Source of the DNA: Escherichia coli
Lineage (GTDB): Bacteria > Pseudomonadota > Gammaproteobacteria > Enterobacterales > Enterobacteriaceae
DNA: 64,000 nucleotides
Assembly (NCBI RefSeq): GCF_017348835.2
Contig: NZ_CP071375.1
Reading direction: 5' to 3' (one strand)
Of this stretch, positions 20,963 to 22,895 are shown in pieces. The translations under genes and the position numbers were made by a program. A model generated the notes under the pieces. It made no database searches. It had not been told where the DNA came from and saw nothing but the letters and a program-made list of their open reading frames with translations. Position 1 is the first letter of the stretch, and every line of letters starts with the position of its first letter.

Positions 20963-21883
20963 TTACTCGCCCTTTTTCGCCGCCTGAATATACAGCATCT
21001 CCAACGCCAGCGTCGCTGCTGCCAGAGCGGTGATTTCCGACTGATCGTATGCCGGAGCCACTTCCACTACGTCCATCCCAACGATGTTGAGATCTTTCAG
21101 GCCGCGTACCAGTTTAATGGCGCGATCGGAGGTCAGACCGCCAATTACCGGCGTACCGGTTCCCGGCGCAAATGCAGGATCCAGGCAGTCGATATCAAAG
21201 GTCAGGTAAACCGGCATATCACCCACAATTTGTTTCACCTGGGCGATAACGTCATCCACGCTGCGATCGTTCACCTGGCAGGCGTCCAGCACGGTAAAGC
21301 CGTTGTCTTTATCAAATTCGGTACGAATACCAATCTGCACGGAATGATTCGGGTCGATCAGACCTTCTTTCGGCGCGGTATAGAACATGGTGCCGTGGTC
21401 AAATTCACAACCGTTAGCGTAGGTATCGGTGTGGGCATCAAAGTGTACCAGCGCCATTTTGCCGAAATGCTTCGCATGTGCACGCAGCAGCGGCAACGTA
21501 ACAAAGTGGTCACCACCGAAGGAGAGCATACGCTTACCGGCAGCCAGCAGCTTCTCGGCGTGTGCCTGCAGTTTTTCGCTCATCTCACGGGCATCGCCGA
21601 AGGCATATACCAGATCGCCGCAGTCCACCACGTTCAGACGCTCGCGCATGTCGAAATTCCACGGGAAGCGGTTGTGTTCCCAGGCCAGGTTAGTCGAAAC
21701 CTGGCGAATCGCCGCCGGGCCGTGACGACCACCGGCACGGCCAGAGGTGGCCATGTCGAACGGCACGCCGGTGATCACCCAGTCGGCATCGCTGTCATAC
21801 GGCTGGAAGTTCATCGGCAGGCGTAAAAAACCAAAGGCGTTGGAAACCAGTGAGTTATCGTATTGATGACCTAAGGTGCTCAT
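20963..21883 (-). CDS. speB: Agmatinase
   Basis: 306-aa [29 protein letters not shown]..., arginase-family motifs. Confidence 0.95.
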
Positions 21884-22018
21884 GGATGGACTCCTATTAC
21901 AAAGTCGATATAAAAAAACCCTTCCGCGTCGTTAGGCCCGACGAGGAAGGGTTGGATTTGCGAAACACAAGTTTGTGCTAATTATCGCCTTAAATGGGCG
22001 AGGCATCAAGCGAGGTTG

Positions 22019-22750
22019 CTATTTCCGACACGGTGGCGGCGCATAGCCATTGTTGTCCGCCGGAAACGCTTGTCCAGAGCACGGCGGCAGCGCGTTTTGC
22101 GCCTGGCCTTGTAATTCAAAGGCGGCAAAGCCGATTACACCGGTATTACGCACATCGCCTTGCGCCGAATTGGCTGCGTAGGAATCAGCAACGTTGGCGA
22201 ACTGAAAAGCCGCTTCGGTATGTTTATCTTTGCGGAATCCTTTAATCGCTAACGAATCTCCGGCATTCACAATATAGCCGTTGTTATTCAGCGAACCTTG
22301 CTTGCCGTTCAGCACATCCAGGCCATCAACCGTAGCAACGATCTCGTAGTTGGTGTTACGACTGTAATTACGAACATATAATTGATAATTCATTCCGACT
22401 CTGGCATGGACAATATAGCGTGGTTCATTATTTGATGAATCATAAACCCGCGTAATAGGTAGAGAATTAAAATTACCATCGCGAATAGCATATTCCAGTT
22501 CGTTAATACGAATGCTATAAACGCGGTCGTAGCCGGAAGGAACATTAGTCGAATAACTAATAACGATCATCTCTGCAGGATCGCGCCAGGCTCGTTCAGC
22601 AGATACGCCCTGAACCGATGAGTGCACATCCCCACCCCAGGCGGTGCCGACATTGCCCGATGCACTGCTATTATACTGCGCATTACTGGAACAACCGGCC
22701 AGCAGCACGACTAATGCTATCAACGCGCTACGTACTTTCCATTTTTTCAT
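22019..22750 (-). CDS. Putative lipoprotein, accessory
   Basis: 243-aa ORF; signal peptide plus lipobox LLAGCSS; Asn/Ser/Tyr-rich; sits between speB and speA. Confidence 0.55.
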   Translation of the reverse strand: MKKWKVRSALIALVVLLAGCSSNAQYNSSASGNVGTAWGGDVHSSVQGVSAERAWRDPAEMIVISYSTNVPSGYDRVYSIRINELEYAIRDGNFNSLPITRVYDSSNNEPRYIVHARVGMNYQLYVRNYSRNTNYEIVATVDGLDVLNGKQGSLNNNGYIVNAGDSLAIKGFRKDKHTEAAFQFANVADSYAANSAQGDVRNTGVIGFAAFELQGQAQNALPPCSGQAFPADNNGYAPPPCRK

Positions 22751-22895
22751 AACCGTTCCCTCTGCATTTAATTAATGCAGCGATTGTAGGGAGATTATTT
22801 AATAAGAAAAGCAGCTAGATTATTTTTAAGAATATATAAAAAGAAAGCGGGCCGATTTACGTAAATAAATCGACCCGCCAGCAGAATAATCTCAA

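Follow-up and report, generated by a model that had tools for sequence, protein, structure and literature searches.

The DNA analysed here, a stretch of 64,000 nucleotides from Escherichia coli (contig NZ_CP071375.1 of assembly GCF_017348835.2; hereafter the window), carries on its minus strand a gene for a 243-residue lipoprotein (22019..22750), which lies between speA (22896-24872, minus strand) and speB (20963-21883, minus strand). The combined evidence makes it probable that this is a functional, vertically inherited and separately transcribed gene, ancestral at its site and repeatedly lost, and that its product is an outer-membrane lipoprotein sorted by the localization of lipoproteins (Lol) pathway, belonging to an undescribed family and carrying a tethered β-sandwich binding domain. 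The gene itself is real, conserved and under purifying selection. It is also an ordinary gene, already present in RefSeq, with an unstudied function; literature searches, made with locus tags and phrases as queries, turned up no paper that treats it.

The order along the minus strand is speA, the open reading frame of 243 codons and speB, with 1012 bp between speA and speB; this interval is 100% identical to that of strain PE164. The reading frame starts with ATG, its translation opens MKKWKVRSALIALVVLLAGCSS, and a GAGGGA motif 6-7 nt 5' of the start codon provides a ribosome-binding site (22754-22763). RefSeq places a coding sequence at the same position in strains O157 (WP_000758914.1, ‘lipoprotein’), UTI89 and IAI1. 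The initial annotation of the window had given the coordinates and length of this gene, an LLAGC lipobox and a gap of about 1 kb between speA and speB, all of which agree with the listing of open reading frames, the measured interval and an invariant cysteine at position 20.

In pairwise comparisons with O157, UTI89, IAI1, three other Escherichia lineages, Salmonella and Citrobacter, the ratio of nonsynonymous to synonymous divergence (dN/dS) is 0.06-0.16, with synonymous divergence reaching saturation, and each of the 11 orthologues tested (11/11) is intact with exactly 243 codons. It is exceedingly improbable that the reading frame is a decaying or non-functional remnant kept by annotation pipelines. 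Such a remnant would be in keeping with the K-12-type loss, the IS1 and IS5 insertions (IS, insertion sequence) in several lineages described below, and the lack of a known family. The selection signal contradicts it, as do the intact orthologues, the 30 invariant columns shared across Proteobacteria and a confident structure model.

The protein is enriched in Asn (9.9%), Ser (9.1%) and Tyr (5.8%), as the initial annotation had stated, but the label ‘low-complexity’ that went with this statement does not apply: local entropy is normal, the lowest Shannon entropy in any 20-residue segment being 2.84 bits, and residues 33-215 are predicted to be ordered.

Ancestry and distribution of the gene

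Orthologues that are 53-75% identical lie between speA and speB in all sampled species and clades of Escherichia (E. albertii and E. whittamii among them) and in Citrobacter freundii, C. gillenii, C. portucalensis, Citrobacter sp. FP75, Kluyvera, Klebsiella spallanzanii, Kosakonia, Phytobacter, Intestinirhabdus and Enterobacter sp. BIGb0383. In Salmonella, speA and the lipoprotein gene are followed by a cluster of a GntR-family regulator gene and three dehydrogenase genes. Because the position is shared by all Escherichia and many enterobacterial genera, comparison of these loci indicates that the gene occupied the speA-speB site in the ancestor of the Enterobacteriaceae, and that the K-12 state is an exception derived by loss. 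Enterobacterial contigs with a speA about 85% identical to that of E. coli have a compact, gene-less speA-speB interval, which therefore points to independent losses.

The opposite polarity, with K-12 ancestral and the gene a recent strain-specific islet in other E. coli, is very improbable. It could draw on the absence of the gene from K-12, on the compact interval in the contigs with 85%-identical speA, and on base composition, since the GC content of the gene (48.6%, and 46.7% at third codon positions) lies below that of speA and speB (54-56% and 61-65%). Synteny already contradicts it, as all Escherichia species and at least 8 other genera have the gene in this place; protein identity follows phylogenetic distance, dropping from 98% to 75% to 53%; and the architecture of signal peptide, terminator and promoter is conserved across genera. 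A search of the window found no flanking direct repeats, integrase, transposase or tRNA at the lipoprotein segment. The ‘plasmid’ matches to the gene are mislabelled chromosomes or chromids, and the phage matches cover only partial domains and come from jumbo rhizobiophages. A defence or phage gene identity for the lipoprotein was considered and rejected.

Within E. coli, a megablast search recovered the full speA-speB interval from 3550 of 5426 complete genomes (about 65%), among them O157, O145, O111:H8, IAI1, UTI89, Nissle and ATCC 25922. In the gene-less form the interval is 137 bp; it occurs in K-12 (J53, JM109, W3110), the BL21-type strain Nico21(DE3) and the commensal HS. The K-12 junction was recovered at full length from 1865 genomes, with 100% identity in nearly all of them; 1867 genomes have a single copy of a K-12-specific 65-nt spacer, which has no other occurrence. 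A K-12-type allele with slight divergence is carried by 77 genomes, including O121:H19 and UTAK-6, so the gene-less allele is not confined to one clone. The initial annotation knew of no gene at this position in K-12, and indeed the three K-12 strains have 137 bp only. The implication that the gene is an unusual extra does not hold, given its presence in about two thirds of complete E. coli genomes and in all other Escherichia sampled. Occurrence both in K-12 and in most genomes had been named as the finding that would speak against an extra gene; the gene is absent from K-12 and present in most genomes.

Insertions interrupt the gene in individual lineages. Strain AQ15 carries IS1B in mid-gene, and in 23CRST038 an IS1 copy is accompanied by loss of the 5' part and a rearrangement. 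On a contig of SRR7873474, an element with the end GGAAGGTGCGAACAAGTCCCTGATA, which we take to be IS5, is inserted after codon 167 at a TTAG site; this insertion yields a 174-residue variant that is represented by 448 database sequences.

The speB side of the locus is polymorphic in a second respect. IAI1 has a D-glucosaminate phosphotransferase system (PTS) island, comprising dagF, dgaE, four PTS subunit genes and dagR, between loiP and speB, and in 23CRST038 dagR lies directly upstream of speB; the island is absent from the window and from K-12. In addition, speB of the window strain differs from that of K-12 at 45 of 921 nt and from that of O157 at 36 of 921 nt. Because this exceeds the divergence of speA (about 1.6%), the comparison suggests a local recombination tract in the window strain.

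Transcription signals and the K-12 allele

A terminator scan, an inverted-repeat search and RNA folding agree on a strong intrinsic terminator directly after the speA stop codon (22836..22879, minus strand). It has a 15-bp stem, GGCGGGTCGATTTA/TAAATCGGCCCGC, at 22879-22846, followed by a T-run, and the stem is conserved across genera. The region upstream of the lipoprotein gene (22751..22835, minus strand) is AT-rich (34.5% GC), is conserved in Escherichia species and contains a -10-like TACAAT at 22783-22788, with TACAAT/TACTAT-like counterparts in other genera. A 19-nt palindrome, CTGCATTAATTAAATGCAG, at 22762-22780 is predicted by RNA folding to form a hairpin in the 5'-untranslated region. 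A promoter consensus scan did not call the TACAAT region, which we regard as the candidate promoter of the lipoprotein gene.

Downstream, a promoter-like element found by promoter scan, TTGATG-17 nt-GATAAT (21981..22009, minus strand), begins 10 nt after the lipoprotein stop codon. In K-12 and in every genus examined, the hexamers CTTGAA/GATAAT are conserved, as is the distance between them, and the element is probably the speB promoter. Between this element and the speB ATG at 21883, the speB leader contains a 14-bp hairpin followed by seven uridines (21912..21953, minus strand), detected as an inverted repeat with a folding energy of -33.9 kcal/mol (z -4.6). It is conserved nearly base for base across genera and is identical in K-12; a consensus structure from 12 enterobacterial sequences has two covarying outer pairs and an invariant inner stem-loop, CGUCGGGCCUAACGACG. 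Rfam contains no family that matches within the speA-speB interval. The hairpin is predicted to act as a terminator behind the lipoprotein gene.

With a terminator after speA, and with the hairpin and the promoter-like element of speB downstream, the lipoprotein gene appears to be its own transcription unit between two terminators. At the sequence level, it would therefore not be co-transcribed with speA or speB as a member of a speAB operon.

The speB leader has two further features. A small palindrome between the promoter-like element and the hairpin is weakly PurR-box-like, and the layout of promoter, about 30 nt and terminator (21912-22009) resembles an attenuator or a small-RNA unit. The speB gene has been listed as PurR-repressed (PMC1905917).

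The K-12 locus has the same speA and speB coding sequences, speB promoter hexamers and leader hairpin as the window. It differs in the segment 21961..22895, where pairwise alignments set 935 bp of the window against 60 diverged bp in K-12. The short form has neither the terminator of speA nor the lipoprotein gene with its promoter, so that nothing stands between speA and the promoter and leader of speB. We infer that the textbook layout of the speAB operon is a derived form.

The origin of the short allele is less straightforward. When positions 3078-3137 of the K-12 locus are compared with 21961-22018 of the window, the K-12 spacer of about 57 nt (speA stop to hairpin) is only 66% identical to its counterpart in gene-bearing E. 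coli. Over the same stretch, E. coli is 90% identical to E. albertii and 72-74% identical to Citrobacter, so that the spacer has diverged to the level seen between genera, while its flanks are 98-100% identical to those of gene-bearing strains. Single-nucleotide polymorphisms specific to K-12 become about 3.5 times denser over the final 490 nt of speA. Because a 66% identical spacer sits within nearly identical flanks, and because polymorphisms are denser at the speA end, a short allelic replacement from an unsampled, already gene-less relative would fit better than a simple deletion. Neither the genera sampled nor a pattern scan of metagenomes yielded a close match to the spacer that might reveal a donor, and no second copy exists in E. 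coli.

We consider it somewhat unlikely that the K-12 allele arose by a simple in-place deletion of 875 bp rather than by acquisition of an allele that is foreign or very old. The identity of the flanks would be expected from a deletion, and the speA end, GGTTATAC, shares weak microhomology with that of the lipoprotein gene, GGCTATGC. The indel has no flanking direct repeats. Deletion in place accounts poorly for the genus-level divergence of the spacer, for the clustering of polymorphisms at the end of speA, and for the second, diverged K-12-type allele in O121:H19 and UTAK-6.

With respect to this locus, K-12 does not stand for the species as a whole: the conserved speA-speB lipoprotein is encoded by two thirds of E. 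coli genomes, enterohaemorrhagic and uropathogenic strains and Nissle among them. In these strains speA has its own terminator, and the ‘speAB operon’ picture from K-12 therefore does not transfer directly. Were the lipoprotein domain to have a specific role in the envelope or a real link to SpeA/SpeB, K-12 physiology would miss that component, and the textbook layout would be the derived one.

Lipidation, sorting and gene neighbourhoods

Residues 1-20 (22691..22750, minus strand) comprise a signal peptide and lipobox, MKKWKVRSALIALVVLLAG followed by Cys20. The n-region contains the basic residues K2, K3, K5 and R7 and is followed by 12 hydrophobic residues, and L17-A18-G19-C20 satisfies the lipobox pattern [LVI][ASTVI][GAS]C. 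Cys20 is invariant in an alignment of 58 homologues from alpha-, beta- and gamma-proteobacteria. It is therefore predicted to be the lipidated first residue of the mature protein, with cleavage between LLAG and C20. Under the established +2 rule for Lol sorting of lipoproteins, the predicted mature N-terminus C-S-S, with no Asp at +2, contains no Lol-avoidance signal. Because serine occupies both +2 and +3, the protein is predicted to follow default Lol sorting to the outer membrane.

We hypothesize that, after processing at this site and Lol-dependent sorting to the outer membrane, a flexible tether would hold an all-β, sandwich-type domain (residues 33-215), which would present a conserved polar face and a Pro-rich tail to a ligand or partner in the envelope. 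The protein would then act by binding rather than by catalysis, and it would take no part in polyamine synthesis. The gene has repeatedly been lost or inactivated, through the K-12/BL21/HS-type allele in a third of E. coli, through losses in other genera, and through insertion of IS1 or IS5 in single lineages. These natural losses suggest that the lipoprotein is dispensable in laboratory conditions. Lipidation, outer-membrane location, the binding role and dispensability are all readings of this kind.

The neighbourhoods of distant homologues weigh against this proposal, as they are heterogeneous and point to no functional partner; across 80 genomic loci, no conserved partner was found for homologues outside the Enterobacteriaceae. 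At about 20 or more loci of Variovorax and Xenophilus, the homologue lies inside the his operon (hisG-hisD-X-hisC-hisB-hisH-hisA, where X is the homologue) and is followed after 6 nt by a gene for a 115-residue secreted protein, which is restricted to the loci of these two genera. Elsewhere it follows metJ (Providencia), lies between thrS and recO (Gilliamella) or adjoins mltG (Neisseria); ahcY is also among the neighbours. 

Two assemblies, labelled ‘Chryseobacterium sp. 18061’ and ‘Mycobacterium sp. KBS0706’, contain copies of proteobacterial type, and these labels look like contamination or misnaming. The ‘Chryseobacterium sp. 18061’ copy is 63% identical, has the same neighbours as that of Citrobacter sp. 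18056 and does not lie beside speA/speB.

Trabulsiella guamensis has a second family member, 41% identical, between a DUF1161 (ynfD-like) gene and ynfC-speG-ynfB, in which speG is the gene for spermidine acetyltransferase. This neighbour and the speA/speB linkage are suggestive of a tie to polyamines, against which the other contexts and the separate transcription unit weigh more heavily. It is correspondingly improbable that the lipoprotein works with the polyamine pathway, for instance as an envelope partner of SpeA/SpeB or in agmatine or putrescine traffic. Such a role would explain the fixed place of the gene; the linkage to speA is conserved across the Enterobacteriaceae, the Trabulsiella paralogue lies beside speG, and an O157 proteome table labels SpeA as periplasmic. 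Yet terminators on both sides set the gene apart as a transcription unit, the linkage of the family to polyamine genes is conserved only within the Enterobacteriaceae, and the homologues in the his operon or beside metJ, thrS, mltG or ahcY have no polyamine genes nearby. Moreover, a third of E. coli genomes have lost the gene, and K-12, which does not have it, makes putrescine normally through SpeA and SpeB. A binding role in the envelope, separate from polyamine synthesis, thus remains our preferred reading.

Protein family and predicted structure

The lipoprotein has no match to any described family or solved fold. Profile searches against Pfam gave no match for the lipoprotein and only noise for 10 distant members. 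With NCBIfam, the lipoprotein matched only at the level of signal-peptide noise, far short of the cut-offs, and the 10 relatives gave no match. PADLOC profiles gave no match to the lipoprotein, and PHROGs returned only weak matches (E >= 0.015), which fall on signal peptides of other lipoproteins. PDB sequences, searched with a profile, yielded no match even at E = 10.

The family itself is large. A profile search of 1.84 billion representative sequences retrieved 4219 proteins at E <= 1e-3, of which 550 reach E <= 1e-30, corresponding to about 4200 clusters at 50% identity, mainly proteobacterial. Named members come from Enterobacterales, Orbaceae, Pseudomonas aeruginosa PA7, Neisseria, Kingella, Burkholderia, Ralstonia, Comamonadaceae, Paracoccus and others. 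The 58-sequence alignment has 30 invariant columns across Proteobacteria, and its near-invariant blocks are LGTxWGE, YEIVATVDGLDVLNGKPGS, IEGFRK, AAFRF, GVIG and AFPAD...YAPPP, the last of which forms a conserved Pro-rich C-terminal tail. Strongly conserved motifs are LGTxWGE, YEIVATVDGLDV, EGFRK and YAPPP. Relatives vary chiefly in the length of an Ala/Pro-rich tether after the cysteine, from 14 residues in the window lipoprotein to more than 100 in some relatives, and one has two modules in permuted order.

The mature protein has a predicted mass of 24 kDa. AlphaFold2 gives an all-β model of about 15 strands over residues 33-215 (predicted local distance difference test score, pLDDT, 82; predicted template modelling score, pTM, 0.79). 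Block-mean pLDDT is mostly above 90 in this ordered region, and confidence is lower in the tether and the C-terminal tail. The residues T36, W38, R53, Y66, Y122, N128, E136, D142, R173 and Y191 make up a conserved polar patch.

The core of the lipoprotein (residues ~90-220) has counterparts with 32-37% identity in hypothetical proteins of the jumbo rhizobiophages Phosso, RHph_I1_18 and Atu_ph07 (PV764938.1, MN988519.1 and MF403008.1). The best structural match in BFVD is a 241-residue viral protein (E 1e-5, 28% identity).

We put forward only tentatively the broader view that the lipoprotein represents a large, undescribed family of lipoprotein or secreted domains, with a β fold that may be without a solved counterpart and with copies in jumbo phages, and that the family has perhaps gone unstudied because K-12 carries the replacement allele. 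A large family with neither a described domain nor a solved structure makes a reasonable target for structural genomics or transposon sequencing (Tn-seq). The practical value of the finding is modest, and no new kind of system is indicated.

The best structural matches to the model are MATH/TRAF-C and Ig-like β-sandwiches (SPOP, USP7 and de novo Ig proteins); the likeness is to 8-stranded antiparallel sandwiches and extends over about 90 aligned residues. In its overall design the protein also recalls tethered outer-membrane lipoproteins such as LpoB. No similarity in sequence or fold to LpoB-type lipoproteins was detected, and neither a peptidoglycan synthase nor any other partner emerged, so the comparison is an analogy only. 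What the two have in common is the layout, in which a lipobox is followed by a variable, disordered linker and a compact domain.
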